A stretch of DNA of 63,250 nt, the filler included. It is 8 parts of 8 records of this genome, joined end to end, with 100 filler letters (N's around TTAATTAATTAA, not from the genome) between each part and the next. Parts side by side here need not be neighbours in the genome. Positions count along the whole stretch, not along the records: positions 38,205 to 46,264 come from SRR31147125_30811; 7 more parts are not named here. The stretch is one strand, 5' to 3'. Below, piece after piece: positions 1,715-58,102 of this stretch; within the stretch, counting starts at the first letter, position 1, and each line of letters opens with the position of its first letter. The notes under the pieces were generated by a model, which saw nothing but the letters and a program-made list of their open reading frames with translations, searched no databases and was not told where the DNA came from. The position numbers and the translations under genes are program-made.

Positions 1715-1882
1715 CTAACCGGCAATAATTGCTTCAGTAGGACAAACGTCTGCACATGCACCGCAATCGATACAGCTGTCGCCGTCAATTACATAAATGT
1801 CACCTTCAGCAATAGCTTCAACCGGACATTCGGGAAGGCAGCTGCCGCATGCAACACATGCGTCTGTTACAGTATAAGCCAT
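1715..1882 (-). CDS. 2[4Fe-4S] clostridial-type ferredoxin, 55 aa (not in the ORF track)
   Basis: Hand translation [55 protein letters not shown]; two CxxCxxCxxxCP motifs; GAGGAG RBS. Confidence 0.96.
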
Positions 1883-1959
1883 GTTGGTCTCCTCATAACT
1901 TTATTTTACTTGACTATATACCTCTTGAAGATATCTAGTCAAGAAAGCACAATAGGTTT

Positions 1960-2701
1960 ATGGATAACATAATTAAAGAATTGGCACTTGATATTCAGCA
2001 GGCGAACAGATGTGTGGTGCTGACCGGGGCAGGGGTTTCCACTTTATCGGGACTTCCGATTTCCGCGGTCCTGACGGCTTATATAAAAAAGTGAAATGAC
2101 CCAAATGTTTGATTTGGAGATGTTTAAACGCGACCCCGCCGTTTTTTACCGCAACGCGGCTGACCTGCTCTATTCAGACCGGGTAATAAAGCCATCTGTC
2201 GTTCATTATGATCTCGCAAAAATGGAATCGATTGGATTAATCGATACCGTGATTACGCAGAATATAGATTTACTGCACCAGAAAGCCGGGTCGGTACGTG
2301 TATTGGAACTGCATGGAACACCATCAAAGCACACCTGTACGGCATGCGGAAAAACCTATCCTTTCCATGAAGCTGCCGAAGTTGGGCGGGAAGGAAAAGT
2401 ATTTTACTGCACTGCATGCAGCGCTCCGGTAAAACCTGATATAACTTTTTTTGGGGAGAGGCTTCCTCTGGGGGTATTTGAAAAGGCAGAGGAGGTGGTT
2501 AAGCAGGCAGATCTGATGCTTATTCTTGGTACATCACTTACTGTATATCCCGCGGCACAGCTGCCGATTACGGCTCTGGAGCAAGGTGTCGATATTGCCA
2601 TAATTACAAATAGTCAAACAGATTTTGACCGGTTTGCGAAATATAAGCTGGGTGATCTGAGAGCGGTTTTTGCGGAGCTTGCGACACTTTTGACGTTTTG
2701 A
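1960..2701 (+). CDS. cobB: Sir2/CobB NAD-dependent deacylase, with a one-base frameshift near 2059
   Basis: ATG 1960 gives ..VVLTGAGVSTLSGLP; restoring one G gives DFRGPDGLY; TQNID, ELHG, CxxC..CxxC, GTSL.VYPAA. Confidence 0.9.
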
Positions 2702-2734
2702 ATTATGTTTCTATAATAACATTATGTTATTATC

Positions 2735-2763
2735 TAGACATAAAGTTATATTTAAGCTACTAT
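2735..2763 (+). promoter_or_regulatory. Probable sigma70 promoter of the dap/lys operon
   Basis: TAGACA-17 nt-TACTAT, about 30 nt before the dapB start and its AAGGAG RBS. Confidence 0.6.
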
Positions 2764-2794
2764 GCGTTCAATCACCCCATGAAGGAGTAACATA

Positions 2795-3547
2795 GTGAAA
2801 ATTGCGCTGAACGGCTATGGCAGAATGGGCAGACTTATCCGTGAAAAATCCCTCGGTAGAGAGATCGAAATTACGGCAATAATTGATCCATTTGTGAAGC
2901 TTCCCGAAGTCACTCATTCGGTACTAACGGCTGAATCCATACATGATGCTGATGTTGTCATAGATTTCACTCTGCCTGATACTGCCATGGAAAATATAAA
3001 GGTCATCACCGCTGCCGGTAAACAGGCTGTTATCGGCACAACCGGCTGGTACGCGCATTTATCTGAGGCCAAAGCACTGGTTAAAGAAGCCGGAACTGGT
3101 CTGATCTGGTCTGGAAATTTCTCACTTGGAGTGAATGTACTGTTTGAACTGGTGCGGTATGCCGGTCGCATTATGAATAAATTAAACGATTACGACTGTT
3201 TTATTCATGAGTATCACCATACAGGAAAGGCTGACAGCCCATCAGGAACAGCTGAAATGCTGGGAAATATATTGCTGGAAGAGATAGATCGGAAAGAGAC
3301 ATTGGCAGTAGATGCCATGCACAGGCAGATCGAAGCAGATGAGCTGCATGTATCATCAACCAGAGGCGGATCGATACCGGGAACTCATTCAATCTGTTTT
3401 GACAGTGAAGTTGATACCATCGAACTGACCCATCAGGCCAGAAACAGGGAGGGCTTTGCCTTCGGAGCGCTGAGAGCGGCCGAATGGATCTATGGTAAAA
3501 CCGGTTTTTTCACAATCGAAAACCTGATGCGCAGTCTTATACAGTAA
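2795..3547 (+). CDS. dapB: 4-hydroxy-tetrahydrodipicolinate reductase
   Basis: GYGRMG, VVIDFT, VIGTTG, EYHHTGKADSPSGTA, FAFGALRAAEW. Confidence 0.96.
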   Translation: MKIALNGYGRMGRLIREKSLGREIEITAIIDPFVKLPEVTHSVLTAESIHDADVVIDFTLPDTAMENIKVITAAGKQAVIGTTGWYAHLSEAKALVKEAGTGLIWSGNFSLGVNVLFELVRYAGRIMNKLNDYDCFIHEYHHTGKADSPSGTAEMLGNILLEEIDRKETLAVDAMHRQIEADELHVSSTRGGSIPGTHSICFDSEVDTIELTHQARNREGFAFGALRAAEWIYGKTGFFTIENLMRSLIQ

Positions 3548-3574
3548 CAAAACAAGAAATTTAGGAGAATCGAT

Positions 3575-4465
3575 ATGAGCAGAGAATTCAGAGGAGTCTA
3601 TACAGCATTAATCACTCCATTTACAAAGTACGGCAGTGTTGATGAAGCCGCACTGGAGAAGATTATAGAATTTCAGATATCCCAAGGGGTTGATGGTCTG
3701 GTACCTTGCGGAACAACCGGGGAGAGTCCAACATTGTCCCACGAGGAACATGACCGGGTAATTGAGCTGACAGTCAAATTTGCGGCTGGACGTGTACCGG
3801 TTATTGCCGGCACTGGCAGTAACGCTACTACTGAAGCTGTCAGATTGTCCAAACATGCCCAGGATGCCGGAGTAGATGCGGTATTACTGGTAAATCCGTA
3901 CTATAATAAACCGACCCAGAAGGGACTCTACCTGCATTTCAAGGCAATTGCCGACGCGCTGTCCATCCCCTGCATCGTCTATAATATTCAAGGCCGGACC
4001 GGGGTGAATATCGAAACCGAAACTCTGGTTCACCTGATGACTGATTGTCCAAATATCACTGTTGTGAAAGAAGCTTCGGGAAATCTTGATCAGATGAAAG
4101 AGGTCATCAGCAGAAGGCATGATGGATTTTCGGTATTGTCGGGAGATGACAATCTTTGTCTCAGTCTGATCAAAGCCGGAGGAGATGGAGTCATATCGGT
4201 TGCATCGAATCTGGTACCGGCTATGATGGTAGAGATGGTGCATGCGGGTCTTGAGGGTGACTTTGAGAAAGCGGAAGCATTGGAAAATCGCATGAAACCA
4301 TTTTTTGAAGCTTGCTTTGTAGAGACAAATCCGATACCGATAAAGACGGCTATGGCTTCGGCGGGGTGGTGCGAGGAAGAGTTTCGCCTTCCTATGTGTT
4401 CTCTGTCGACTGCTGACAGCAGACGACAGTTGGAACAGGCTGTTTCCGGGCTTCTGGAAAAATAA
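3575..4465 (+). CDS. dapA: 4-hydroxy-tetrahydrodipicolinate synthase
   Basis: GTTGESPTL, PYYNKPTQ, YNIQGRT, KEASG, TNPIPIK. Confidence 0.97.
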   Translation: MSREFRGVYTALITPFTKYGSVDEAALEKIIEFQISQGVDGLVPCGTTGESPTLSHEEHDRVIELTVKFAAGRVPVIAGTGSNATTEAVRLSKHAQDAGVDAVLLVNPYYNKPTQKGLYLHFKAIADALSIPCIVYNIQGRTGVNIETETLVHLMTDCPNITVVKEASGNLDQMKEVISRRHDGFSVLSGDDNLCLSLIKAGGDGVISVASNLVPAMMVEMVHAGLEGDFEKAEALENRMKPFFEACFVETNPIPIKTAMASAGWCEEEFRLPMCSLSTADSRRQLEQAVSGLLEK

Positions 4466-4526
4466 TTCGATTTACGGTACAGTACCTCATCAGGACTTCC
4501 AACGTATTGATGTAATCATTTTGAAA

Positions 4527-4683
4527 TGACCGAAAGAGTGTGGGATTTACTAGAATGTAACATATTGTCCAATGAGAAAATATCTCATATACCTATGTTC
4601 AGATTTCTGCGAAATGTTTTAATATGCATTATCTGTTTTAAATGTATGGATTACCATGAATAGATCCCACACTCTTTCGGTCA
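4527..4683. mobile_element. MITE-like 157-bp element with perfect 20-bp terminal inverted repeats
   Basis: TGACCGAAAGAGTGTGGGAT (4527-4546) and its exact reverse complement (4664-4683) around an AT-rich interior; no clear target-site duplication. Confidence 0.6.
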
Positions 4684-4759
4684 GTTAACAAACACAAAGA
4701 ACAGGATGCGCTACTCGAGCAAACAGTATACTTCATAGATAAGAGGAGATTCATATAGA

Positions 4760-5989
4760 ATGGCACGAATTAATGAAAACTACAGGAAATTAGCAGCGGG
4801 ATATCTATTCCCGGAAATTGGAAGAAGAACCAGGGCATTTCAGGAAGCACACCCGGAAGCAGTTTTGCGACGGTTGGGAATTGGTAATACTACCGAAGCA
4901 TTGACTCCTTCAGTTGTAAAAGGATTGAATAAGGGAGTATCCCAGTTAGCGGATGTATCGACCTATTCAGGATATGGTGATGAGCAGGGCATGACCGCAC
5001 TACGTAAACGTTTGTCGGCATTTTATGCTGAACGCGGGGTTGATATGGATGCGGACAATTTTTTTATAAGTGATGGTGCCAAACCGGATTCAAGTAATAT
5101 TCAGTCGATTTTTGGACTGGATAACATAATTGCTGTACAGGATCCGGCTTATCCTGTCTATGTGGATTCTAATGTGATATCCGGACGAACCGGAGAATTT
5201 GACCAGGAAAGCGGGAAATATGAGGGATTTGTCTATATGGAATGCAGGGAAGACAATGGATTTTTTCCAGCGCTCCCTGAAAGCAAAGTAGATATCATCT
5301 ATTTGTGCAGTCCCAATAACCCAACTGGTGCCGTAGCAACCAAACAGCAGTTGGCTCAATTTGTCGAATATGCCATACAACACAAAGCGGTGATCTTTTT
5401 TGATGCGTCATACTCTGAATATATTACTGATCCCGAGCTGCCGCGTTCCATATATGAAGTTGAAGGTGCTGAACAATGTGCTATAGAGATTAATAGTTTC
5501 TCGAAATTTGCTGGTTTTACCGGTGTACGGCTGGGATGGACAGTTGTTCCCCGTGAACTGACAGTTGAAGGTTCGGAACCAGGTGAGGTGAGAAACATGT
5601 GGTTCAGGAGACAGACTACGTTTTTCAATGGGGCATCTAATATTGTTCAGGAAGGCGGCCTTGCCGTTCTTTCAGAAGAGGGATTGCAGGAGTGTTCCGA
5701 TCTTATTGGTTACTATATGAAAAATGCTGAAATTATTCGCTCTGGGTTAGAATCTATCGAACTTGAAGTTTACGGTGGAGACAATGCTCCTTACTTATGG
5801 CTGAAAACACCCGGCGGAATAAGCTCATGGGATTTCTTTGACAAGCTGTTGAATGAATGCTGGGTTATCGGTACACCAGGATCAGGATTTGGTCCTGCCG
5901 GTGAAGGCTATTTCAGGCTTAGTGCGTTTGGGCATCGTGAAGATGTTGAAGCTGCAGTTGAAAATATTGTCACAAGACTCTCTTTATAA
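4760..5989 (+). CDS. dapL: LL-diaminopimelate aminotransferase
   Basis: GYLFPEI, SDGAK, DPAYPVYVDSNV, CSPNNPTG, SFSKFAGFTGVRLGW, GEGYFRLSAF. Confidence 0.96.
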   Translation: MARINENYRKLAAGYLFPEIGRRTRAFQEAHPEAVLRRLGIGNTTEALTPSVVKGLNKGVSQLADVSTYSGYGDEQGMTALRKRLSAFYAERGVDMDADNFFISDGAKPDSSNIQSIFGLDNIIAVQDPAYPVYVDSNVISGRTGEFDQESGKYEGFVYMECREDNGFFPALPESKVDIIYLCSPNNPTGAVATKQQLAQFVEYAIQHKAVIFFDASYSEYITDPELPRSIYEVEGAEQCAIEINSFSKFAGFTGVRLGWTVVPRELTVEGSEPGEVRNMWFRRQTTFFNGASNIVQEGGLAVLSEEGLQECSDLIGYYMKNAEIIRSGLESIELEVYGGDNAPYLWLKTPGGISSWDFFDKLLNECWVIGTPGSGFGPAGEGYFRLSAFGHREDVEAAVENIVTRLSL

Positions 5990-11962: not shown

Positions 11963-13504
11963 TCATTTAGTTGATTTATATTTTCTGGTATTGATGTGAT
12001 ATTTATCTACTCTTAAACCCATAATTCGTTCTGAAATACCAAGGATTTTGGCTGCTTGGGCACGATTACCCCTTGTGGTTTTCAGTGCATCAGCAATGAT
12101 TTCCTGTTCCAACTCTTCAAGAGCGTGTTGAAGTGAGCTTGAAAACTGAGTATTTGACGATTCAGCAGACTGCAGGCTGGGAGGAAGGTGGTAGCCGTGA
12201 ATTACATCATCACTGCTTAATAAAACAGCACGCTCAATACAATTCTCCAGTTCACGTACATTACCAGGCCAGTGATAACTCATAAACAGATCAATGGCCG
12301 CGCTGGTAATGCGTTTCACGTTACGATGATTTCTTTTGTTGTATTTTTCTATAAAATGATCACATAACAGCATGATATCGCTTTTGCGGTCACGCAGAGG
12401 CGGTATATGAATGGGAAATACATTCAGCCGATAATAGAGATCCTCCCGAAAATTCCCGCTTTTTATCTCGTCTTCAAGATTTCTGTTTGTCGCTGTTATC
12501 AGGCGCACATTGACACGTATGGTTTTCACACCTCCGACCCGCTCGAATTCCTGCTCCTGCAGTACCCGTAGCAGTTTTACCTGCATCTGAGGGGATAATT
12601 CACCAATTTCATCAAGAAACAAAGTCCCTTTGTCAGCAAGTTCAAACCGACCCTTCCGGTCGGCATGAGCACCGGTAAATGCTCCTTTCTGATGTCCAAA
12701 TAATTCACTCTCTATTACACTTTCCGGTAAAGCAGCGCAGTTTACCTTGATAAACGGTTTATCCGCCCTTAGGCTATTGTAATGTATCTCCTGGGCAAAT
12801 AACTCTTTACCAGTTCCGCTTTCACCACGAATCAGAACAGTTGCTTCACTCTTGCAGACCTGACCGATAAGATCGAAAACCTCCTGTATTGACTGAGATC
12901 TTCCGATTATATTGGCAGGCTGAAATCTATCTTTCAATTCGTTAAGCAGGCGATCATTCTCAGCCTGAAGGCGTTCTTTTTCTTCCCGTAATTCCTGCTG
13001 CAGTTTTACGGCACGTGCAATCATGGACGAAATGATTGAAAGCAGACGAACATAGGTTTCCAGGCTGAAATCCAGTTCATTGCTGCATGTGATATTCATT
13101 GTTCCAATTGTCTGATTACCAATTTTTACCGGCACACAAACAAATGCCGCTTTTATACTATCTTTAGGAGGGGCTTTATTTTCTGCTCCGGTTTTATTGA
13201 TGAAGGCAGCATCTTCAGAAATATCAGGAATAATTACCGGTTCTCCTGTTTTTACAACTTGTCCGGTAATACCTTCACCCAGCTGATATCTTCCTCGTTT
13301 TTTCTGATTTTCAGTCAATCCAAAAGCGGATTCAATGAGTATTTCGTCTGTCTCACGATTCAGCAGTGTAATTGCACCCCGCAGCATAGGACTGTGGTAG
13401 GCGATAGCTTCCAGAATTGGAGCAATAATCTGCTGCATATCTTCAGATCGGTCGAGGATTTTACTGATTTCGAACAGCAGTGTCAGCTCGTTCAGGTTTT
13501 CCAT
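11963..13504 (-). CDS. NifA-like GAF-AAA+-Fis HTH sigma54 enhancer-binding protein
   Basis: N-terminal GAF ([13 protein letters not shown]), [33 protein letters not shown]-terminal HTH. Confidence 0.93.
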
Positions 13505-13508
13505 TCCA

Positions 13509-13532
13509 ATATCCTACATTATTGTAGGATAT
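13509..13532. promoter_or_regulatory. Perfect palindrome over the regulator's RBS, candidate autoregulatory site
   Basis: ATATCCTACA-TTAT-TGTAGGATAT, 4 nt upstream of the ATG; contains the TACA-N4-TGTA core. Confidence 0.7.
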
Positions 13533-13682
13533 AACTCAAGTTTTATTTATCTGCATAATACTGCATAATTCTGCACTGTAAAATTATGCACGCGGTCAGT
13601 AAAATTCTACACTGCATAATTCTACAGGTGGCTTGTACATTTTGCTTAATTTCAGATCAGCTGCTTATCATGCACAGAGAAA

Positions 13683-14177
13683 TCAAACTATTTCAAAAAC
13701 ACCTCGCTGACGATTTTTCCTGACTTTATTCCAGTTGAAAATACGTCCATTCATGCAGATATAGACTCCCGATGCAAGTGACTGGGCTGCAGATATTGAT
13801 GCTCCAAGATTGAAAATTGCATCGGTATTGCGAATTGAATAGGGAACCATGGCTCCGGTAAGAATAATTGTCTTATCGGTTATCCTGGAACCGAGCAGTT
13901 CTGCCGTCTGTACCATGGTATCGGTACCGTGGATTATTACTATGGTCTCTTCAGGCGAAGCAATACAGGATTCCAGAATTTTCATCCTGTCGGAATCATT
14001 CATATCCAGACTGTCTTTCAATTGGTTAATTTCGATTTCCATATCAAGCGTGCAGCGAACATATGTTAGAATTTCCGGGAGATGCGTTGTAGTAAAAGTT
14101 AACGCGCCATTCAGCTCATCATACTCTTTATCGAATGTCCCGCCGGTAATAATTAATCGGATCTCTTTTTTTGCCAT
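13683..14177 (-). CDS. Short asparaginase-family protein (N-terminal domain only)
   Basis: IITGGTFDK, KDSLDM, IIHGTDTM, ILTGAMVP; 164 aa. Confidence 0.85.
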   Translation of the reverse strand: MAKKEIRLIITGGTFDKEYDELNGALTFTTTHLPEILTYVRCTLDMEIEINQLKDSLDMNDSDRMKILESCIASPEETIVIIHGTDTMVQTAELLGSRITDKTIILTGAMVPYSIRNTDAIFNLGASISAAQSLASGVYICMNGRIFNWNKVRKNRQRGVFEIV

Positions 14178-18584: not shown

Positions 18585-18684
18585 NNNNNNNNNNNNNNNN
18601 NNNNNNNNNNNNNNNNNNNNNNNNNNNNTTAATTAATTAANNNNNNNNNNNNNNNNNNNNNNNNNNNNNNNNNNNNNNNNNNNN
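18585..18684. other. Artificial contig spacer
   Basis: N44-TTAATTAATTAA-N44 linker. Confidence 0.99.
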
Positions 18685-24218: not shown

Positions 24219-24318
24219 NNNNNNNNNNNNNNNNNNNNNNNNNNNNNNNNNNNNNNNNNNNNTTAATTAATTAANNNNNNNNNNNNNNNNNNNNNNNNNN
24301 NNNNNNNNNNNNNNNNNN
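24219..24318. other. Artificial contig spacer
   Basis: N/TTAATTAATTAA/N linker. Confidence 0.99.
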
Positions 24319-31034: not shown

Positions 31035-31134
31035 NNNNNNNNNNNNNNNNNNNNNNNNNNNNNNNNNNNNNNNNNNNNTTAATTAATTAANNNNNNNNNN
31101 NNNNNNNNNNNNNNNNNNNNNNNNNNNNNNNNNN
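31035..31134. other. Artificial contig spacer
   Basis: N/TTAATTAATTAA/N linker. Confidence 0.99.
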
Positions 31135-38104: not shown

Positions 38105-38204
38105 NNNNNNNNNNNNNNNNNNNNNNNNNNNNNNNNNNNNNNNNNNNNTTAATTAATTAANNNNNNNNNNNNNNNNNNNNNNNNNNNNNNNNNNNNNNNN
38201 NNNN
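38105..38204. other. Artificial contig spacer
   Basis: N/TTAATTAATTAA/N linker. Confidence 0.99.
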
Positions 38205-38249
38205 TTTTCACGATTTTTGACTATTTTTAACCTCTTTTTACATCTGATT

Positions 38250-38268
38250 TGGCACACATATGGCACAC
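38250..38268. repeat. Direct repeat TGGCACAC x2, candidate integrase arm-type sites
   Basis: Copies at 38250 and 38261 (11-bp period), immediately after the excisionase stop codon. Confidence 0.45.
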
Positions 38269-38270
38269 TT

Positions 38271-38483
38271 TTATGCAAGTATCTCTTCAGCCGTTTTTGA
38301 CTTTATTGCTCTCACTTGATGTTTCTTCAACCATTCTTCTATTTCACTCAGCTTAAATTTTAATCCACCTACTTTATAGTAAGGCAGTCTACCCTGGCTT
38401 GTGAGACGATAGATATAGCTTTTCTTGCATTTCCATATGTGAGCCAGTTCGTCAATCGTGAGGAGTTCATCGTCTTTTGACAT
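38271..38483 (-). CDS. Excisionase/Xis-like HTH_17 DNA-binding protein
   Basis: LLTIDELAHIWKCKKSYIYRLTSQGRLPYYKVGGLKFKLSEIEEWL; start at MSKDD after AAGGTG. Confidence 0.85.
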   Translation of the reverse strand: MSKDDELLTIDELAHIWKCKKSYIYRLTSQGRLPYYKVGGLKFKLSEIEEWLKKHQVRAIKSKTAEEILA

Positions 38484-38528
38484 AACATACACCTTTAATT
38501 TATAAAACATCGAATTTAAAACAAGTAT

Positions 38529-39617
38529 TTAATTTAATGTATATTTTATTTCCTTTCTATGTTTAACCTGTTTTTCTGCAATGGGACAATAAGGATCTAT
38601 ATTCCAGTCTCTCTGTTGGGATATTTGCACAAAAGCCTCCTGCTCGTACAACAATTTGGAAATTCCTGGCGTACAAAATTCGATATCCCACCTATGCTTT
38701 AAACTTTTGATAATGGTTTTCTCATTTTTAATTGGCCAAATAGTAAACGAATAAAATGATGGCTTTATTTGACTGATATCAATCCTGGGTGAAATTATTA
38801 GATTTTCCTGCCATAACTGCTCAAGAATCATTTCACATTCCATTCGATGTTTCTGTACCAATTGTACTACCTTATCAAAATTTTCACTGGCCCAGACTGC
38901 CGATAACGGATTCATACGCAAATTATAAAAAAACTCATTAGAAGGTTTAAAAGGTAGATCACGTTTTTGTCTGTTTGGATGCTGAGTTAACCACACAAGC
39001 TTTTCATATAATTCTTGATGTCTGGTAACAATTATCCCTCCCTCACCAGCAAAAAGTGGTTTGCCATAGGTTAAAGAGAAAACGGCAGCATCTGCCCAGT
39101 AACCTGTGTGGAGCTTGCCATCATATGCACCAAAGCTCTGGGCGCAATCTTGAATAAAATAAAGATCATGCCTATCTGCAATTGTTCTCATCTTTTCTCC
39201 AAAAGATGGGAAACCATATATATCTATACAAAGTATTGCTTCTGTTTTTGGCGTTATTGCTTGTTTAACTTTATCAGGATCAAGACAAAGTGTGTCCGGA
39301 TCAATGTCCGCAAAAACCGGCCTGTTCCCGGCTAATATGAGTCCTGAGATGGATCCACCCCAGGTGTATGGCGGTACAATGATGTCACTGTTATGTATAT
39401 TCCATGCTTCGAAAATGGCCCAAAGGCTCATGGTTGCATTACAGGCAGCGAGTGCATGCGGCACACCAGTGAGTTTAGAGAATTTTCTCTCCAAATGATG
39501 TACAGACTCGGATCCATTCAATGCCATATCTACCTTTTTTTCATCTAAAAAGATTTGTGAAAAAGTTGATTTCATATCGAGCCCAAAGTTAGAAATGTAT
39601 ATATTTGCGATATTCAT
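38529..39617 (-). CDS. DegT/DnrJ/EryC1/StrS PLP-dependent aminotransferase (alternative start 39575)
   Basis: PVFADIDP, QDCAQSFG, FSLTYGKPLFAGEGG. Confidence 0.88.
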   Translation of the reverse strand: MNIANIYISNFGLDMKSTFSQIFLDEKKVDMALNGSESVHHLERKFSKLTGVPHALAACNATMSLWAIFEAWNIHNSDIIVPPYTWGGSISGLILAGNRPVFADIDPDTLCLDPDKVKQAITPKTEAILCIDIYGFPSFGEKMRTIADRHDLYFIQDCAQSFGAYDGKLHTGYWADAAVFSLTYGKPLFAGEGGIIVTRHQELYEKLVWLTQHPNRQKRDLPFKPSNEFFYNLRMNPLSAVWASENFDKVVQLVQKHRMECEMILEQLWQENLIISPRIDISQIKPSFYSFTIWPIKNEKTIIKSLKHRWDIEFCTPGISKLLYEQEAFVQISQQRDWNIDPYCPIAEKQVKHRKEIKYTLN

Positions 39618-41340
39618 CTATTCTTTTATAAAGTCCTTCTCGATTAATCTCTCCTGTTTTTTCATTGACAAGATCAGCAAGATACCATGGATAAGTAAAC
39701 TCACCTGGATTCAAACTCCAGGGATAATATTTGGTAAAAGATGTCAGAGCAAGAGCGTTTAAGCTTGCATAAGCAACCGCATAGGGATTCGTCTCACCTG
39801 CGTATTCCTGTGCTGCTTGCAGCAGTACGTCTTCTGTTAATTCATTTGAGGACATAACAGCATGATTAAAAACATCCCGCATCTTTCGAGGGGAAATTCC
39901 TTTTTGGTATAAACTTGTGCACGCCTCAATCAGTTTCGGAGAGTTAGGATCAAGTGACTGCTTTTTGGTCAGTTGTTTTTCCAATAGGCACACGAATTGA
40001 CAAAGTTCAGCAGGCTGCAATTCAAGGAAAGGCAGCACCAAAAATCGGTCGATCCAGGCTGGATCCAATCGTTCAGGAACGTTGGTGGCTGCAATTAATA
40101 AAACCTTACCACGTAAATCATCCCGGGCAAAAAACTGGAAAAGCTCTCCCAAAATATTTTGTGAAACGCCTCCATCTGACGCTTCGCTCTTCCTTGATGG
40201 TGTCATTTCCGTGATTTCATCTATGAATAAAATAACTGGACTGAGAGTCTGGAGTAATGAAAGAGCCAACTTTATCCTGCGTTCTGTTTCACCTACGAAC
40301 TTGTCCTTTATCAGTTCAAATTGAACAATATTAAATCCACATAGTTCACCCAATATAGGTGCAAATGTTGACTTTCCAACACCAAAAGGACCGGCAAACA
40401 AAAGCGCGCGTGGAGATCGTGGATCACAACTTTTCAGTAATTCTGAAAACTGTGCTATAACACGCTTTATAACTTTTAAACCAACGATCTGGTTTAAAGT
40501 CATGTCCGTGCTCATGATTGAAAGTGTTCCTTCGGAAGATTTTAATATACTTTGTGATTTGTGTTCAGTAATACCCTTAATGGTAAACGGAGTATTTTTT
40601 GTTCTTTGTATTTTTACCAGTTCTTCAATTTGTTTTAATTTTTCTCCCTTCGCATGCTTTGCAAAATTCTTAAGGTTTAGCTCCTTACTGAAGATATTCA
40701 TATTATCACCCTCCATCCGATCAATTAAAATCGTCGTAAAATTGATTATCTCTTCCTCTGAGGGATGGGCGTATACAACTTTGTACAAATCATTTAAAAG
40801 CTTGTTCTGCAGGCCAGATCGAGTCAAACAAATAACACAGTTTTCACTTTTTCTCAAAGCTATCGAATAATTCAGGCTATGCAAGGTTTCCGCAACAATT
40901 GTTGTTTCATTTGCACCAGTATTAGCCGATTGTGAGTCTGGTGCCAAATGTTCGAGATATTGGATTAGCCAAACATATCTAATTCCTTCTTTTGCTTTTA
41001 TTTGTAATAGCCTGCTCATATCCCGCATGATCTGTAAAACTTCTTCCGCATTTACCTCCCGTTCCTTTTTAATTATTCTCGCCAATCCCACCGCCTGCAT
41101 ATCCCTGTCGACTTTATCCTTAATTTCTTTTGCTAGGTTACTGTAATCGTACACATATAAACCACTTGAAAATGAATAACAGAGTACGACATATTCTTTT
41201 TTAGAAAGACACTCCGCAATATGTGTTGGGGTATAATAAATACTATTATCAGAGACACGAAAATCATGAATATTTCCTTGAGCCTCTATCGCTGGATGCC
41301 CTTCATCAACAGCTTTAATGACAGGATCACTTTTTTCCAT
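39589..41340 (-). CDS. Classical AAA ATPase with degenerate N-terminal domain (Ycf46-like)
   Basis: GPFGVGKS, KFVGETERRI pore loop, LFIDEI, DGGVSQNILG, AATN, LDPAWIDRF. Confidence 0.85.
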   Translation of the reverse strand: MEKSDPVIKAVDEGHPAIEAQGNIHDFRVSDNSIYYTPTHIAECLSKKEYVVLCYSFSSGLYVYDYSNLAKEIKDKVDRDMQAVGLARIIKKEREVNAEEVLQIMRDMSRLLQIKAKEGIRYVWLIQYLEHLAPDSQSANTGANETTIVAETLHSLNYSIALRKSENCVICLTRSGLQNKLLNDLYKVVYAHPSEEEIINFTTILIDRMEGDNMNIFSKELNLKNFAKHAKGEKLKQIEELVKIQRTKNTPFTIKGITEHKSQSILKSSEGTLSIMSTDMTLNQIVGLKVIKRVIAQFSELLKSCDPRSPRALLFAGPFGVGKSTFAPILGELCGFNIVQFELIKDKFVGETERRIKLALSLLQTLSPVILFIDEITEMTPSRKSEASDGGVSQNILGELFQFFARDDLRGKVLLIAATNVPERLDPAWIDRFLVLPFLELQPAELCQFVCLLEKQLTKKQSLDPNSPKLIEACTSLYQKGISPRKMRDVFNHAVMSSNELTEDVLLQAAQEYAGETNPYAVAYASLNALALTSFTKYYPWSLNPGEFTYPWYLADLVNEKTGEINREGLYKRIDEYRKYIHF

Positions 41341-41341
41341 T

Positions 41342-42151
41342 TTAATCCACCAATACTTTTGTTCGTTGTTTCATAACGGATCTTGAACTGGTTGATCTTT
41401 TATTTTTTTGAGATGTCTTGCCTTTTTGTCCATTTTTCAGAGATCGAGATTCACGGGGGATGCGTTCACCACTTCTTATTGTGATTCCTTTATTCTGCAG
41501 TTTTTCCAAGATTCTATCCATCACACGATGACACTCGCCCTTTGGAAATCCGGTGATATCCATATCAATTTTTACACCATTAGATGAAGAAAATGTCTTT
41601 ACTATAACGGCTCGCCCGTCAGAATCGGCAAGAGAAAAAAGACCCACCCTATCGTTTACATTGTTGAATTTTTGTGTTGTAAATCCCTCTTCAGATGTTG
41701 TCTGGATAATTCGTTTGTTCACTTCATCAAATTGTATTTTTTGCATGGTCTTCGATGCATTTTTTAAGAGTCGCTGAAAACTTTTTTCATCATCCAATTG
41801 ATGTAAATTTTTAAGACCCTCCTCGTTCAAATAATAGCGCAATGGTGATGTATTCATTACAGCCAAATTTCTCATTCTATTCAAGTCTATATTATTCACT
41901 TTACTCATTGAAAATTGCGACAACTTTTTCATATTAGATTTGGCATTTTCTAGTGCTTCTTTGGGTGTTGAGATTTCATTCTCATCATTAGCTTCAACCA
42001 ATTTGACAAGTTCATCATATGTCTTTTTTGCATCTTCGGGTAAAGCATTGATTATTCGCTTCATCGCTTCAGCTGTTGCCAACGCAGCAGCCCCGAGACC
42101 GGCAATACAGGTCCCAACAATAAAAAGTCCATTTATAAAAAGTTCACTCAT
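41342..42151 (-). CDS. Hypothetical protein with N-terminal hydrophobic helix and DUF1257/DUF2997-like C-terminus
   Basis: EEGFTT..VKIDMDITGFPKGECHRVMDRILEKL; similarity judged by eye. Confidence 0.6.
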   Translation of the reverse strand: MSELFINGLFIVGTCIAGLGAAALATAEAMKRIINALPEDAKKTYDELVKLVEANDENEISTPKEALENAKSNMKKLSQFSMSKVNNIDLNRMRNLAVMNTSPLRYYLNEEGLKNLHQLDDEKSFQRLLKNASKTMQKIQFDEVNKRIIQTTSEEGFTTQKFNNVNDRVGLFSLADSDGRAVIVKTFSSSNGVKIDMDITGFPKGECHRVMDRILEKLQNKGITIRSGERIPRESRSLKNGQKGKTSQKNKRSTSSRSVMKQRTKVLVD

Positions 42152-42161
42152 TTTAATTCTC

Positions 42162-43181
42162 CTATAGTTTTTTGTTATTATCCTGGTTTAAATCGTCCAA
42201 AATTCTGCCAATGTTACTTTTTTCATCTTCATCAATATCCTCTTCCTCTTGGTCAATTTCTTTCGCATTCCCTGCTGTCTTAGGTGGAGGATCGGGTGTA
42301 TTGTTCTCCTCAGAAATGCATTCAGCTTGCACATCGTCATCATCATCACCACCATAAAATATGTTGAGCAAACGACGAAGAGCAGATGAGAGCGGGACAC
42401 TGACTTCATTTGTGTTGTTTTTTCGGTTATATATTTCAAGTTCTCTTAGATAGGCATCCCACATTTCACAAGCTCTTGCTGCAAAATCTTCATATAGGAA
42501 ATTTTCACTTTTTATTTTCCATCTCAGATATTTTAACCGGGGATAAAAGTAAAAGGAATAGTAGACAAATGAGAGGACGAATATACCGGCAATTATTTCT
42601 ATTGCCAGAAGAAATGCAGGTAAATAAAGCTGAATGAATGTGCTTTCTACTTGAATACCTGCTTCTTGCATGAGCTGAACACGTATTCGTGAGAAATTGA
42701 GCATCGCTGATATGAGTATGACTGAGATAATAATGCCAAACACAAACATAATCCATGATAAAGAAACGTTCTTTTTCCGACGATTAATAATCGTATCTGC
42801 AAGCGTATGATGTGAATAAGTAAGATTTGACGCTCTGGTAAATAGAGGGAAAAACGGTTCAGCAATGAGTGCTGAGGGTAATATTGCAAATAAAATGAGC
42901 GCTAAAGGTGGTATCCCCTGGAACCTTTGTCCAACCATTTCGTAATACATGGGCTGGCTGACAAGAAACTCAACAAATCCTGTGAGTAACCAGGTGAAAA
43001 ACATGACACCTGAAATAAGAACAAATATATTTGACAAGTTAGCTTGTTCCTGATGATGCTTTAGAAAATCCTGGATGATCTCTTTGAGCTCATCTAAACT
43101 TCTTTTTTTATCCTCTGCTCTTTGAGCCAAACTGTTCGCTTCATGTCCCAAAGCATGCGGAGGAAAATTTTTCTGTTCCAT
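42162..43181 (-). CDS. Four-TM membrane protein with acidic C-terminal tail
   Basis: Four hydrophobic segments; DDDDD and EEEDIDEDE tail. Confidence 0.75.
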   Translation of the reverse strand: MEQKNFPPHALGHEANSLAQRAEDKKRSLDELKEIIQDFLKHHQEQANLSNIFVLISGVMFFTWLLTGFVEFLVSQPMYYEMVGQRFQGIPPLALILFAILPSALIAEPFFPLFTRASNLTYSHHTLADTIINRRKKNVSLSWIMFVFGIIISVILISAMLNFSRIRVQLMQEAGIQVESTFIQLYLPAFLLAIEIIAGIFVLSFVYYSFYFYPRLKYLRWKIKSENFLYEDFAARACEMWDAYLRELEIYNRKNNTNEVSVPLSSALRRLLNIFYGGDDDDDVQAECISEENNTPDPPPKTAGNAKEIDQEEEDIDEDEKSNIGRILDDLNQDNNKKL

Positions 43182-43182
43182 T

Positions 43183-43887
43183 TTATTTCCTTTCCTGGAT
43201 ATCTTTTACTTTTAGTACATTTGCTGCTTCTAAATAGGATAATACCCCGCTGAGAGATTCAAACATTTTGACATCCTGGCCAAAAACAGATTTTGCCTTC
43301 TCTGATGCCATCCCAACTGTCAGGATGTCCACATCTGGAATATCTGTTGACTTTGGTAAAGTTTTATATTCTCCATCACTGATAATGACAAGGATTTTAT
43401 CCCATGTAGTAAATTGAGTCTCCTGAAACAGAAGGGAAAACCGTCGAAGACAACCAACAATATCCGATCCTTTGCTGTTCTTTTTCACATTAATTTTGTC
43501 CATTATGATAGTATATGCCTTTGTGTTCTCATCATCATACCTTTGCTTTAATTTCTTATTTTTAGAAATCTGCTGGCCTCTTTCAGTCAGTTTTCCCGAA
43601 ACAGGAATGGTATCCATTTTCAGGTTGAACCGTAAAAGCTCAGTGTAGCTGCTTGTCTTGATATGCCCGAAGGCAAGGACACCGCCTCTTTTACTAACAT
43701 GTCGCAATAATTCCCTTGTAAGGGCAGAGTCCAGGGCTGGCCATTGTTTCATCGAACCCGAAATGTCATAGGCTATGCCGAGGACGACGGGCAAATAAAT
43801 TTTCTTTTGGAGTTGTTTATTTTCAATTTTTTCCTGACATCCACCCACAAACGCAAACATGCTAAATAGAAAAATAACATTCTTCAT
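43183..43887 (-). CDS. Lipoprotein with vWA/MIDAS domain
   Basis: Lipobox VGG-C17; YDISGSM (DxSxS), SDI, IISDG. Confidence 0.75.
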   Translation of the reverse strand: MKNVIFLFSMFAFVGGCQEKIENKQLQKKIYLPVVLGIAYDISGSMKQWPALDSALTRELLRHVSKRGGVLAFGHIKTSSYTELLRFNLKMDTIPVSGKLTERGQQISKNKKLKQRYDDENTKAYTIIMDKINVKKNSKGSDIVGCLRRFSLLFQETQFTTWDKILVIISDGEYKTLPKSTDIPDVDILTVGMASEKAKSVFGQDVKMFESLSGVLSYLEAANVLKVKDIQERK

Positions 43888-43939
43888 AGTAATCCTCCTT
43901 CAATTGCTTGAATCTGGCACTAATTCAAGCACTCTCTTA

Positions 43940-44398
43940 TTAGCCCCATTCGAAGTAGTCTTTGTAATTTTTCAGATATTTTTCGAGTTTTTTAATTATT
44001 CCGCCCTGTCCTTTACTATTTCCATAAAATGCCTGTCTAACATTTGCTTCACTGCAACCTCGTTCTTGGGCAATGTCTGTCCAGTTATTTCCTTTTAAAT
44101 AGCTATTGAAAATGCCTTTTTGAGTAGGTGTAAAGTGCTGTTCAACAAGATCGAAGATCAGACGAATCATTGCCCTTCTTTTTCTTAACTTTCTCCTACA
44201 CCTTATTTCCTCATCATATTCGAGTTGTTTTACTTCCTCTTCACTCAGATAATGGTATTCCACATTAGGATCGATTCGAAATTTATTAGATTTTGAATAT
44301 GAAATAGTCGTCTGATAATTACCCCAGCGATCTGAAACGATTTTATACCTTGTGGTTTCCCATGTTTCATTATTTTGCAGGTATTCATACGGTGACAT
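43940..44398 (-). CDS. Sigma70 region-4-like HTH protein
   Basis: FTPTQKGIFNSYLKGNNWTDIAQERGCSEANVRQ; GGAG RBS. Confidence 0.7.
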   Translation of the reverse strand: MSPYEYLQNNETWETTRYKIVSDRWGNYQTTISYSKSNKFRIDPNVEYHYLSEEEVKQLEYDEEIRCRRKLRKRRAMIRLIFDLVEQHFTPTQKGIFNSYLKGNNWTDIAQERGCSEANVRQAFYGNSKGQGGIIKKLEKYLKNYKDYFEWG

Positions 44399-44558
44399 AT
44401 ATAATATCTCCAGCCTCTAAGTAATTTGCATTATTAAATTTTAATCAAGGCATATTGCTGCAACTTGACCATTGGCTTCGATTCGTAATAGACTTCAGAT
44501 TTCAGTTATTAAATTATTTCAAACCAAGCCTAAACATGTTCTTCTTTGATCTGTTTAA

Positions 44559-44575
44559 TGCAAAAATAATTCCAG
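44559..44575 (-). promoter_or_regulatory. Candidate sigma54 promoter of the 44398-38271 operon
   Basis: CTGGAATTATTTTTGCA, GG-N10-GC, between the bEBP gene and the first operon gene, correct orientation. Confidence 0.6.
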
Positions 44576-44744
44576 ATCAGAGACTGCCTACAAACAAAGA
44601 TATATTTCATTGATTATAAAAAAGTTAAAAACTTTTCACAACAGGGAGGACCAAATAGTCTTCGCCAAATTATTTGAAAACTTTTGGTTTTAATTTGCTG
44701 ATTATTTGAAGAATTGGGGAAAGTTTTATATATGAAGTGTTTTC

Positions 44745-46264
44745 CTATAGCATTTGTGCTCTATCATCTATATTTCTAATATAATATTTTGTACTGCGTC
44801 CACGTTTATCACATACAAGAATATTTTTTTGCATAAGTAGCTTAAAATCACTAACTGCAGTACTATCTGTAATCCTATATCTTTCTCTATATTCTCTATT
44901 TGTAATTTCGACTTTGTGTGATGTTTTACACAATTCAATAAAATCAATTAGCCTCCAATTCAATCCTTTGTAAAGATCTTGAAATTCTTCGGACGATACC
45001 ATATCATCATGAAGGGATTTTACCATTCCACGAGGAATATCATGAACTGTGATTTGATTTCCTGTAGCCATAATTAACCCACTCTTTACAGCGTTTTCGA
45101 GTTCGCGTATGTTACCTGGCCAATTATATTTTTTGAAAATATCCAATACGGATTTATCAATTTTAGTAATTGAAGGATTTTCTGCTTGAAATTTATGTAA
45201 AAAATAATTCGCTAGTGGCTCAATATCTTCAATTCGATCTCTTAATGGCGGAATTTCGAGTTGCACTACTTTCAATCTGTAATACAAGTCCTCTCTAAAT
45301 CTACCACTTTCGATTAATTTTAGAAGATCCTTATTCGTTGCTGCTATTATTCGAACATCAATTTTTATTGTCTTCGTTCCCCCTACTCGCTCGAATGTTT
45401 TATTTTCAATAATCCTTAATAGTTTACCTTGAGCACTAAAATCCATATCCCCAATTTCATCAAGAAATATTGTTCCCTTATCTGCTAATTCAAATTTACC
45501 CGGTTTTGTTCTATATGCACTAGTGAAGGATCCTTTTTCATGACCAAATAACTCACTTTCAACTAAAGATTCTTGGAATGCAGTACAATTAACCGTAATC
45601 ATTGGACCATCTTTTCTTATGCTTTGTTTATGAATAAGATTAGCGACAACTTCCTTTCCAGTACCACTTTCTCCTAATATTATTACCGTTGCTTCACTAT
45701 TTGATATTTTCTTTACTTTATCCAGCAAAGCAAACATACAGGGACTATGTACAATTATCTCATGGGGCAAGATAACTTCAAGTAATTTTTTTAAATTGTC
45801 ATGATAACCACCAGAAACTTGGTTTTTCTTATATATTAATTCCTTTATTAAAGCTTGATTCTGTGCTTTAAAAAGTAGCCATGCTATAAATGGCAAAGAT
45901 ACATCTTTTTGGGCATATTCCAGGATAAAACTTTTAATGTATTGCAAATTATTCTCATTTAATAATTTCAATAAAATTATTTTTGTAAAAACATTTCTTT
46001 TAACTTCATAAGAGTTAAGTCTTTCACCTAAATTTAATAATCCTGACAGCTTTGTTGACCAGATATGCTTGGGAATTCTGGACATATAAAGAGCGTCTAA
46101 AGTAGCAATAATGAAATTAACATTATCCGATTTTATTATCATATTCAAAATACCAGCTGGATCAAAATCTCGATTTAACAAATCAAGTATTAACGCTCTA
46201 AAGATAAAAAATGGAAGCTCAACATCTTTATAAATTACGGATGTATCGAAATTTATATTTTTTT
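44745..46264 (-). CDS. Sigma54 enhancer-binding protein with winged-helix C-terminus, 5'-truncated
   Basis: [32 protein letters not shown]-terminal ITNREYRERYRITDSTAVSDFKLL..GRSTKY; frame open to the contig edge. Confidence 0.88.
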
Positions 46265-46364
46265 NNNNNNNNNNNNNNNNNNNNNNNNNNNNNNNNNNNN
46301 NNNNNNNNTTAATTAATTAANNNNNNNNNNNNNNNNNNNNNNNNNNNNNNNNNNNNNNNNNNNN
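46265..46364. other. Artificial contig spacer
   Basis: N/TTAATTAATTAA/N linker. Confidence 0.99.
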
Positions 46365-46394
46365 TCGTCAGTTCGAGTCTGACTACCAGCTCCA
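46365..46394 (+). tRNA. 3' part of a tRNA (probably Thr; anticodon not visible)
   Basis: T-arm GTCAG-TTCGAGT-CTGAC, acceptor strand TACCAGC, discriminator T, CCA. Confidence 0.75.
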
Positions 46395-46435
46395 AAAAAA
46401 CCCTTGTAATCAGAGTGATTACAAGGGTTTTTGGT
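46381..46435 (+). repeat. Left att-like direct repeat (tRNA 3' end plus hairpin)
   Basis: GACTACCAGCTCCAAAAAAACCCTTGTAATCAGAGTGATTACAAGGGTTTTTGGT, repeated at 51368-51420. Confidence 0.85.
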
Positions 46436-51420: not shown

Positions 51421-51520
51421 NNNNNNNNNNNNNNNNNNNNNNNNNNNNNNNNNNNNNNNNNNNNTTAATTAATTAANNNNNNNNNNNNNNNNNNNNNNNN
51501 NNNNNNNNNNNNNNNNNNNN
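51421..51520. other. Artificial contig spacer
   Basis: N/TTAATTAATTAA/N linker. Confidence 0.99.
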
Positions 51521-58002: not shown

Positions 58003-58102
58003 NNNNNNNNNNNNNNNNNNNNNNNNNNNNNNNNNNNNNNNNNNNNTTAATTAATTAANNNNNNNNNNNNNNNNNNNNNNNNNNNNNNNNNNNNNNNNNN
58101 NN
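58003..58102. other. Artificial contig spacer
   Basis: N/TTAATTAATTAA/N linker. Confidence 0.99.

Follow-up and report, generated by a model that had tools for sequence, protein, structure and literature searches.

AAA+ ATPases are encoded together with proteins that carry a von Willebrand factor A (vWA) domain and its metal-ion-dependent adhesion site (MIDAS) in the MoxR-vWA pairs, among them RavA-ViaA, the Bat operon, CbbQ-CbbO and NorQ-NorD. Ycf46, another AAA ATPase, is associated with DUF2997 and DUF1257 proteins, and the plasmid-borne IetAS system joins an AAA ATPase to a subtilase. Here we describe a five-gene cassette coding for a predicted vWA lipoprotein, a membrane protein with about four transmembrane (TM) segments, a protein of 269 residues (p269), an AAA ATPase and a DegT-type pyridoxal phosphate (PLP) enzyme. 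It is carried, with three further genes, on one complete contig of 8,060 bp (38205-46264) within a stretch of 63,250 nucleotides, hereafter the window. A first reading of these letters without database searches (the sequence-only reading) had proposed the eight genes as a candidate undescribed system. We find that the five core genes are a real, conserved unit, and we judge, with a probability of roughly 0.45, that this module is a new inducible, horizontally mobile, envelope-spanning defence or conflict system. The genes are, in the direction of transcription:

44745-46181, minus strand: bacterial enhancer-binding protein (bEBP), 478 aa; Pfam Sigma54_activat 1.5e-68
43940-44398, minus strand: p152, 152 aa; no Pfam family
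43183-43887, minus strand: lipoprotein with vWA/MIDAS domain, 234 aa; Pfam VWA only 0.04-0.06
42162-43181, minus strand: 4-TM protein, 339 aa; no Pfam family
41342-42151, minus strand: p269, 269 aa; no Pfam family
39589-41340, minus strand: AAA ATPase, 583 aa; Pfam AAA PF00004 6.5e-22
38529-39617, minus strand: DegT/DnrJ/EryC1-type PLP enzyme, 362 aa; Pfam DegT_DnrJ_EryC1 7.3e-53
38271-38510, minus strand: HTH_17/excisionase-type protein at the contig end, 79 aa; Pfam HTH_17 3.3e-14

All eight open reading frames (ORFs) lie on the minus strand and span 38271-46181. The bEBP and p152 genes are separated by 346 nt, and p152 and the lipoprotein gene by 52 nt. Within the core the gaps shrink to 1 nt (lipoprotein to 4-TM), 10 nt (4-TM to p269) and 1 nt (p269 to ATPase), the DegT and ATPase genes overlap by 29 nt if the ATG at 39617 is the start, and the HTH_17 gene follows after 18 nt. 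These ORF coordinates agree with the arrangement first described, of eight co-oriented genes with the core five 1-13 nt apart or overlapping.

The conservation of the core was followed from its ATPase. About 48 full-length relatives were found at 34-48% identity, nearly all of them metagenomic, with sources that include Saprospiraceae, Calditrichota and Deferribacteres metagenome-assembled genomes. A scan of metagenome contigs with the ATPase profile gave 80 loci, 31 of which (L001-L031) were compared, and family hidden Markov models (HMMs) built for the lipoprotein, the membrane protein and p269 were run on all ORFs of all loci. We took an ATPase as orthologous at 34% identity or more, and a locus as informative if it held an orthologous ATPase and at least 3.3 kb of upstream DNA. 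The order lipoprotein, TM protein, p269, AAA, DegT was kept in all ten informative loci (L003-L008, L014, L017, L019 and L020). A DegT-type gene stood directly after the ATPase gene in 27 of the 31 loci, frequently with overlaps of 1-8 nt; in L022 the start of the DegT gene is visible before the contig ends, and five short contigs carry p269 fragments upstream of the ATPase. Because the gene order recurs in independent loci, the cluster exceeds what chance would give, and the unit formed by the five core genes is confirmed. Co-occurrence in other genomes, on which the sequence-only reading had staked its proposal, was thus found in ten of ten informative loci. The genes for bEBP, p152 and the HTH_17 protein, by comparison with the related loci, are not conserved with the core five.

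A diverged form of the same architecture, with ATPases of 24-27% identity, occurs in L001 (Pseudanabaena sp. FACHB-1998), L022, L023, L030 and L031. Here the order is an exported or anchored protein, a polytopic membrane protein, a protein of 190-330 aa, the ATPase and a DegT-type enzyme. The MOBF plasmid pZXY24 of Arthrobacter sp. ZXY-2 also carries this diverged architecture, under the annotations hypothetical proteins, 'ATPase central domain-containing protein' and 'DegT/DnrJ/EryC1/StrS aminotransferase'.

The distribution of the cassette is patchy and extends over several phyla. Among 401 sampled cyanobacterial genomes a full-length match was present only in the starting genome (1/401), and 21 of the 401 matched the profile of the ATPase N-domain. 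Out of 1.84 billion proteins, this profile at E<=0.001 picks out 471 representative ones. In the Pseudanabaena genome it finds the cassette's own ATPase only. A search of genome contigs with the single ATPase returned only two distant Pseudanabaena loci, and no relatives of the ATPase were found in phage records or in IMG/VR. Twenty cyanobacterial regions from 18 genomes (L137-L156) were considered as further cassettes and rejected: their ATPases, of 505-669 aa and 20-28% identity, share part of the N-domain, none has a DegT gene adjoining it (one DegT-like gene lies about 6.5 kb away on the other strand), and they represent a related ATPase family instead.

How does the cassette compare with the described systems? 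It resembles IetAS in placing an AAA ATPase beside a possible effector enzyme on mobile DNA. It differs in its PLP enzyme partner, its three membrane or exported proteins and the degenerate AAA-like domain at the N-terminus of its ATPase, and the Pfam matches of contig 38205-46264 include no IetS protease. With the MoxR-vWA pairs it shares an AAA+ ATPase encoded together with a vWA/MIDAS protein, but the cassette ATPase is of the classical Cdc48/VAT type, with no MoxR-type Pfam family among its matches. Furthermore, the cassette vWA protein is a predicted exported lipoprotein and would therefore have no direct contact with a cytoplasmic ATPase, unlike the cytoplasmic vWA partner of the MoxR systems. 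The Psp response offers a likeness in regulation, namely a bEBP lacking a receiver domain beside a candidate sigma-54-type promoter and membrane-associated products; it differs in that the contig has no PspA/B/C family match in Pfam and in that the bEBP has an orphan N-domain.

Likeness to the accessory modules of type III CRISPR systems comes from the diverged versions. In L030 a Cas7 of type III-D and a CARF gene stand immediately upstream of the diverged cassette, in L028 a CARF5/Csx1 gene precedes it, and the Pseudanabaena version (L001) includes a member (3.4e-63) of the type III-B accessory family C3a124. The window's contig, by contrast, has no cas or CARF gene in its 8 kb. Shah et al. 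2018 (PMC6546367) associates C3a124 with type III-B and assigns it no function, and the word aminotransferase is absent from the main text of that paper. The cassette lacks a defining feature of each of IetAS, the MoxR-vWA pairs, the CARF-linked type III modules and Psp.

With PADLOC-DB 2.0.0 the DegT enzyme, the TM protein and the lipoprotein of the window had no match at E<=0.1 and p269 had two weak ones (0.003); among 30 proteins from seven related loci, the 18 non-ATPase cassette proteins had no match at E<=0.001. The best PADLOC match of the ATPase was IetA, at 1.2e-15 for the window and 3.8e-23 for L022, over the AAA core only. No core protein scored above an NCBIfam cut-off. PADLOC models thus cover no non-ATPase core protein, in keeping with the initial statement that the combination was not recognised as a named system. 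The aminotransferase of the 'Ukko' system (2025 preprint) was considered and set aside, as it belongs to a different family (PF12897) in a different context. A literature search that did not cover the supplements of Shah et al. 2018 and bioRxiv found no description of the cassette. We rate it as a candidate NTPase-centred, mobile, multi-gene conflict cassette, real and well conserved, with no described function and with a proposed role that derives from its context.

The ATPase appears to consist of two AAA-like parts. Residues 1-275, judged by eye, form a degenerate AAA-like domain of strand-loop-helix patterns, with a Walker-B-like hhhDY motif and a lid and with no P-loop lysine. The active AAA domain holds Walker A at G317-K323, Walker B at D374-E375, N420 and R432; all 23 sequences aligned share G317, P318, G320, K323, D374 and E375, and N420 and R432 are invariant as well. 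Its pore loop reads K345-D-K-F348-V349-G350, in which V349 is nearly invariant and G350 invariant, and the alignment gives the family pattern [VI]K[NS]M[YWF]VG. A conserved, aromatic-rich C-terminal extension follows. Against the PDB, the ATPase profile has its top matches in VAT, Cdc48 and Afg2 (4.7e-47). These conserved motifs and profile matches bear out the earlier assignment to the classical AAA ATPases with an aromatic pore loop, and the protein is accordingly placed, by its motifs, in the classical AAA clade with an intact aromatic pore loop, sensor-1 Asn and arginine finger. It would act as a hexamer that threads protein substrates. Two variants of the family were observed, one (P0209) with two degenerate N-domain copies before the active AAA domain and one (P0258) with about 140 extra N-terminal residues.

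The PLP enzyme keeps its catalytic residues. None of the 15 sequences compared departs from D157, S181, K186, G191, G193 or G194, and from family knowledge and the alignment to 5w70 we take K186 to be the Schiff-base lysine and D157 the aspartate that contacts the pyridine nitrogen. A family-specific HPxRQ motif lies at 213-217. Fifty-four PDB sequences match the enzyme at <=1e-10, the nearest being 2-deoxy-scyllo-inosose aminotransferase (1e-32). When compared with the NCBIfam equivalogs (DesI, PseC, ArnB, WecE and others), the enzyme fell far below every cut-off, the best being DesI with 124.7 bits against a cut-off of 650. A modelled complex of the ATPase and the DegT-type enzyme, run without family alignments, scored 0.00 and counts neither way.

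The lipoprotein has a hydrophobic N-terminus and a lipobox cysteine, Cys17, that is invariant in 10 of 10 sequences, and from these two features it is predicted to be exported. The MIDAS residues D41, S45, D142, S170 and D171 are invariant in the same number of sequences, position 43 being S or T in all ten. The AlphaFold2 (AF2) model of the protein has a predicted local distance difference test score (pLDDT) of 73.8; a Foldseek search with this model gave 72 PDB matches at E<=1e-3 and, among those listed, nearly all are vWA/I-domains or vWA-containing proteins. The lipoprotein profile had the vWA domain of TRAP as its top PDB match (E 0.011). Fold, MIDAS residues and lipobox together confirm the vWA lipoprotein proposed at the outset, though Pfam VWA stays below threshold.

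The 4-TM protein, found by its family HMM in 10 of the 10 informative loci, has about four TM segments; a helical stretch comes next, then a linker rich in Pro and acidic residues (an acidic disordered tail), and the family alignment contains a conserved motif of about 17 residues at the extreme C-terminus. It belongs to no Pfam, NCBIfam or PADLOC family, and a search of the ESM Atlas with p269 and the 4-TM protein returned unnamed clusters only. One cassette subtype encodes an additional small protein (104-115 aa, 2-3 TM segments) ahead of the lipoprotein gene:

L014, 7021-7335: extra 2-3-TM protein
L017, 5437-5754: extra 2-3-TM protein
L019, 7067-7414: extra 2-3-TM protein
L020, 7020-7334: extra 2-3-TM protein

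Proteins with a bPH_2 domain accompany the cassette in L004, L007 and L019.

The p269 gene is always immediately upstream of the ATPase gene, also in Pseudanabaena and on the Arthrobacter plasmid (HMM 6.2e-7). The protein starts with a near-invariant MSE, followed by a Gly/Ala-rich hydrophobic stretch and a helical region; residues from about 158 to 235 form a small alpha/beta domain in which the pattern GF...GFG...C is invariant, and a basic tail completes the protein. The AF2 model has a pLDDT of 73.1. Fold comparison with VIA-align gave Z 11.6 for the spermine synthase N-domain and Z 10.7 for KA1, a likeness that indicates a common alpha/beta type only. Foldseek found nothing at E<=1e-3, the profile had no match in the PDB, and 13 family members compared with Pfam gave no consistent family. 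We regard p269 as a putative membrane adaptor or substrate of the ATPase.

The sequence-only reading had called p269 DUF2997-like and brought the ATPase into connection with Ycf46, and neither is supported. None of the 13 p269 family members matches DUF2997 (PF11211) at E<=5. When compared by hhalign with reference sets of 29 genuine DUF2997 and 17 DUF1257 sequences from cyanobacterial genomes, p269 reached a probability of 0.1% and E values of 0.47-0.89 (0.47 with the DUF2997 set), which are not significant; the best local alignment put its GFGxGxC in register with the GIxGxSC of DUF2997. Likeness of the cassette ATPase to Ycf46 lies in an AAA ATPase with an extra N-terminal domain, and a specific link to Ycf46 was not established. 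Pseudanabaena has its genuine DUF2997 and DUF1257 genes at other sites in the genome, with no ATPase within 3 kb.

Regulation was examined in the DNA upstream of the core, where the following candidate elements lie:

44559-44574, minus strand: candidate sigma-54 -24/-12 promoter, TGGAATTATTTTTGCA, of the form GG-N10-GC, with 9 of 11 specified positions matching
44628-44685, minus strand: possible upstream activating sequence (UAS), inverted arms TGAAAACTTTT / AAAAGTTTTCA separated by 36 nt
44543-44583, minus strand: inverted repeat CAGATCAGAGA / TCTTTGATCTG, 11 nt and 91% complementary, bracketing the -24/-12 element

The candidate promoter TGGAATTATTTTTGCA stands about 160 nt before p152. The arms of the UAS-like pair, 11 nt long and 91% complementary, lie 55-125 nt upstream of the -24 element, and the pair is weak evidence because the region is AT-rich. 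p152 is the first gene after the candidate promoter; its C-terminal half is helix-turn-helix-like as judged by eye only, and it has no BLASTP partner in the 14 loci compared. A repressor, for instance p152, may have its operator in the inverted repeat at 44543-44583. Sigma-54 enhancer-binding proteins carry a loop with the consensus GAFTGA. In the bEBP the loop reads GSFTSA, which retains F and T and departs from the consensus at two positions. The protein consists of an orphan N-domain (1-140), a sigma-54 AAA+ core and a C-terminal region that is not of the Fis type. In addition to Sigma54_activat it matches Pfam AAA_lid_14 (9.8e-23), the PADLOC model RtcR_PspF2 (3.9e-100, over the AAA core only) and TIGR02974 (pspF, 5.7e-77), and no homologue was found for its residues 1-145.

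Elements matching at least 9 of 11 positions on the sense strand within 2.5 kb upstream of the lipoprotein gene were present in 5 of 11 loci, that is the window, L003, L004, L008 and L014. Shuffled sequences gave 0.72 +/- 0.80 (0 of 1000 reached five), the opposite strand gave one of 11, and the whole-locus background of 0.20 per 2.5 kb predicts about 2.2 over the 11 loci. Each of the three bEBP-bearing loci (the window, L003, L014) has a -24/-12 element. Sigma-54 control of the operon is consequently plausible. Of the sigma-54 promoter and dedicated bEBP proposed initially, the bEBP stands on its Pfam match and the promoter is plausible at the level of a motif only.

Other versions of the cassette have other regulators. 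A bEBP lies upstream in L003 and a fusion of a receiver domain (REC) to a bEBP in L014; large REC proteins occur in L006, L017, L019 and L020 and a REC-NYN protein in L001, and CARF proteins take the place of regulators in L028 and L030. The regulators of the cassette are thus interchangeable: a bEBP and its -24/-12 site in the window, and in other loci REC proteins or genes of the CARF/type III CRISPR kind. Where orphan receiver domains occur in these loci, no histidine kinase was observed nearby.

Defence genes lie near the cassette in several loci. These are AbiEi/AbiEii in L007, a reverse transcriptase of the DRT type together with a type I methyltransferase in L017, a CBASS cyclase, E2, TM effector and methyltransferases in L004, and McrBC, WYL and a restriction enzyme in L020. 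Receiver domains are fused to other domains in L006 (REC-PRTase, 2697-4817), L003 (a 1083-aa REC-kinase-NERD-S1 protein with PD-T4-6-like matches, 1838-5089) and L001 (the REC-NYN protein, 12794-13843). Also observed were a 1013-aa radical SAM/SPASM protein in L014 (214-3255) and a lone class-I Trp/Tyr-tRNA-synthetase-like gene in L020 (959-2077). It is possible that the REC fusions, the radical SAM/SPASM gene and the tRNA-synthetase-like gene are further conflict genes, the fusions with orphan receiver domains.

Homologous loci also point to mobile DNA. Downstream of the cassette in L008 come a T4CP-like (type IV coupling protein) ATPase, a Replic_Relax relaxase, an HTH_17 gene and an integrase, after which housekeeping genes begin; an integrase is also present in L019, and traA on pZXY24. 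Further ATPases of the T4CP/HerA-like kind recur in the vicinity of the cassette, in L001 (TrwB_AAD_bind 8e-71), L004, L008, L020 and L025, the one in L020 being fused to REC and directly downstream of the cassette. In the window itself, the HTH_17 protein scores 43.5 bits with TIGR01764 'excise' (cut-off 28.8) and 53.3 with Pfam HTH_17 (cut-off 27), so that the domain models, both above their cut-offs, predict the Xis-like protein that had been named at first sight. As the contig end resembles the layout of L008, this gene is probably part of the carrier element and not of the cassette. The mobile element of the sequence-only reading is supported through homologous loci (L008 and the MOBF plasmid) and is not readable from the flanking DNA of the window.

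Together, these observations suggest how a defence or conflict system could be built from the five products. A signal, relayed here by the bEBP and sigma-54, would induce the operon. Lipoprotein and 4-TM protein together would form a unit for sensing or anchoring across the membrane. The ATPase hexamer would be docked there by p269, possibly via the hydrophobic segment near its N-terminus, and by the conserved C-terminal tail of the 4-TM protein. It would then thread a partner protein, and in this way either gate the PLP enzyme or remodel membrane partners. As the catalytic effector, the PLP enzyme would act on a metabolite resembling an NDP-keto- or amino-sugar, and the outcome would harm the invading phage or plasmid, or the infected cell. 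An analogy for an unfoldase that gates a PLP enzyme is found in ClpX, which unfolds ALAS and thereby gives access to PLP, as stated in the abstract of PMC10743472; homology is limited to the AAA+ and PLP folds. A trans-envelope machine had been proposed from the start, and its components, a vWA lipoprotein, a polytopic protein, a third protein and a cytoplasmic AAA protein, are indeed found, while the roles given to them are inferential.

We rate any single mechanistic step much lower than the defence or conflict reading itself. A more specific form, a new class of phage or plasmid immunity in which the MIDAS lipoprotein senses an event outside the cytoplasmic membrane and a membrane-docked double-ring AAA protein gates the PLP effector, with at least three kinds of possible input (sigma-54/bEBP, REC phosphorelay and type III CRISPR CARF/cyclic oligoadenylate), seems to us quite unlikely as a whole.

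Several observations weigh against a defence or conflict system. Its defence neighbourhood, a list of the genes found nearby, is suggestive only, and the recurring T4CP-like ATPases and relaxases could indicate a role in DNA transfer rather than in defence. Among the core proteins only the generic AAA domain matches PADLOC models. DegT-family enzymes are normally biosynthetic sugar aminotransferases, which fits surface remodelling at least as well. With regard to inducibility, the window contains 13 one-mismatch matches to the promoter motif against 8.4 expected, so that the single site is within chance, and a sigma-70-like promoter also lies upstream of the operon.

The alternative that survives best is a module for envelope stress or surface remodelling, in which a PspF-like bEBP responds to membrane damage and the DegT enzyme makes an amino sugar that modifies a glycan or lipid of the cell surface. 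This would change a receptor or the charge of the surface, and the ATPase, membrane proteins and lipoprotein would assemble the step or control its quality. Surface modification genes are common on mobile elements, which suits this proposal. It agrees also with the nearest solved or named relatives of the PLP enzyme, which are aminotransferases of sugars or inososes (ArnB, PseC and DesI among them), with the good scores of the bEBP core in pspF models (TIGR02974) and with the membrane or exported nature of three of the five products. However, no sugar-pathway gene, be it for a glycosyltransferase, a dehydratase or a flippase, accompanies the cassette as a conserved neighbour in any of the ten informative loci, there is no PspA-like Pfam match, and an unfoldase with a pore loop has no evident role in such a pathway. 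Furthermore, the regulators and context (REC-effector fusions, CARF, Cas7) are typical of conflict systems. We consider this explanation unlikely.

A second alternative, that the cassette is an accessory of its carrier element which works with the T4CP-like ATPase and relaxase in transfer, entry exclusion or maintenance, we hold to be very doubtful. The T4CP/HerA-like ATPases near five of the loci speak for it, as do the relaxase and integrase of L008, traA on pZXY24 and the excisionase-type gene that ends the window's contig. Against this, the available DNA of L003, L006, L014, L017 and L019 holds no T4CP-like gene within about 10 kb, and elsewhere both the distance and the strand of that gene vary. 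Some versions lie in type III CRISPR loci that have no transfer genes, and the cassette proteins have no similarity to components of type IV secretion systems in Pfam or NCBIfam. Finally, a chance neighbourhood of unrelated genes or an assembly chimera, which might be suspected since the window joins unrelated contigs and three of the eight genes (HTH_17, p152 and bEBP) are not conserved with the rest, is practically excluded, being already contradicted by the conserved gene order (the same in ten of ten independent loci and in named genomes and plasmids), by spacings of 1-10 nt or overlaps, and by an even GC content of 0.32-0.38 along the contig.

If the cassette is truly a defence or conflict system, it would bring to the field a new effector chemistry, that of a DegT-type PLP enzyme, together with an extracytoplasmic vWA sensor and a concrete pairing of an AAA unfoldase with a PLP enzyme. 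C3a124 and several hundred clusters now labelled 'hypothetical protein' would gain a function as well. Because the cassette measures only about 5 kb, occurs in several phyla and offers clear targets for point mutation in every part, its function is directly testable.

The make-up of the window determines what its other parts can say about the locus. The window consists of eight contigs with GC contents of 0.29-0.61, separated by seven identical spacers of the form N44-TTAATTAATTAA-N44:

18585-18684: spacer
24219-24318: spacer
31035-31134: spacer
38105-38204: spacer
46265-46364: spacer
51421-51520: spacer
58003-58102: spacer

It is probably a concatenated assembly of mixed organisms. Because neighbouring contigs are joined artificially, the flanking DNA of the window is silent on genomic context and on the presence of a mobile element.

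Two minor features of the DNA complete the description. Between the p152 and lipoprotein genes, at 43906-43930 on the minus strand, lies an 8-bp hairpin (GCTTGAAT...ATTCAAGC) with no T-run, which may be an element for RNA processing or attenuation. Scans of the whole window found no complete tRNA gene (ARAGORN) and no complete Rfam family. At the start of the next contig, 46365-46432 on the plus strand, there is an apparent tRNA 3' end (T-arm, ...CCA) cut by the spacer, which is followed by a GC-rich hairpin and a T-run.

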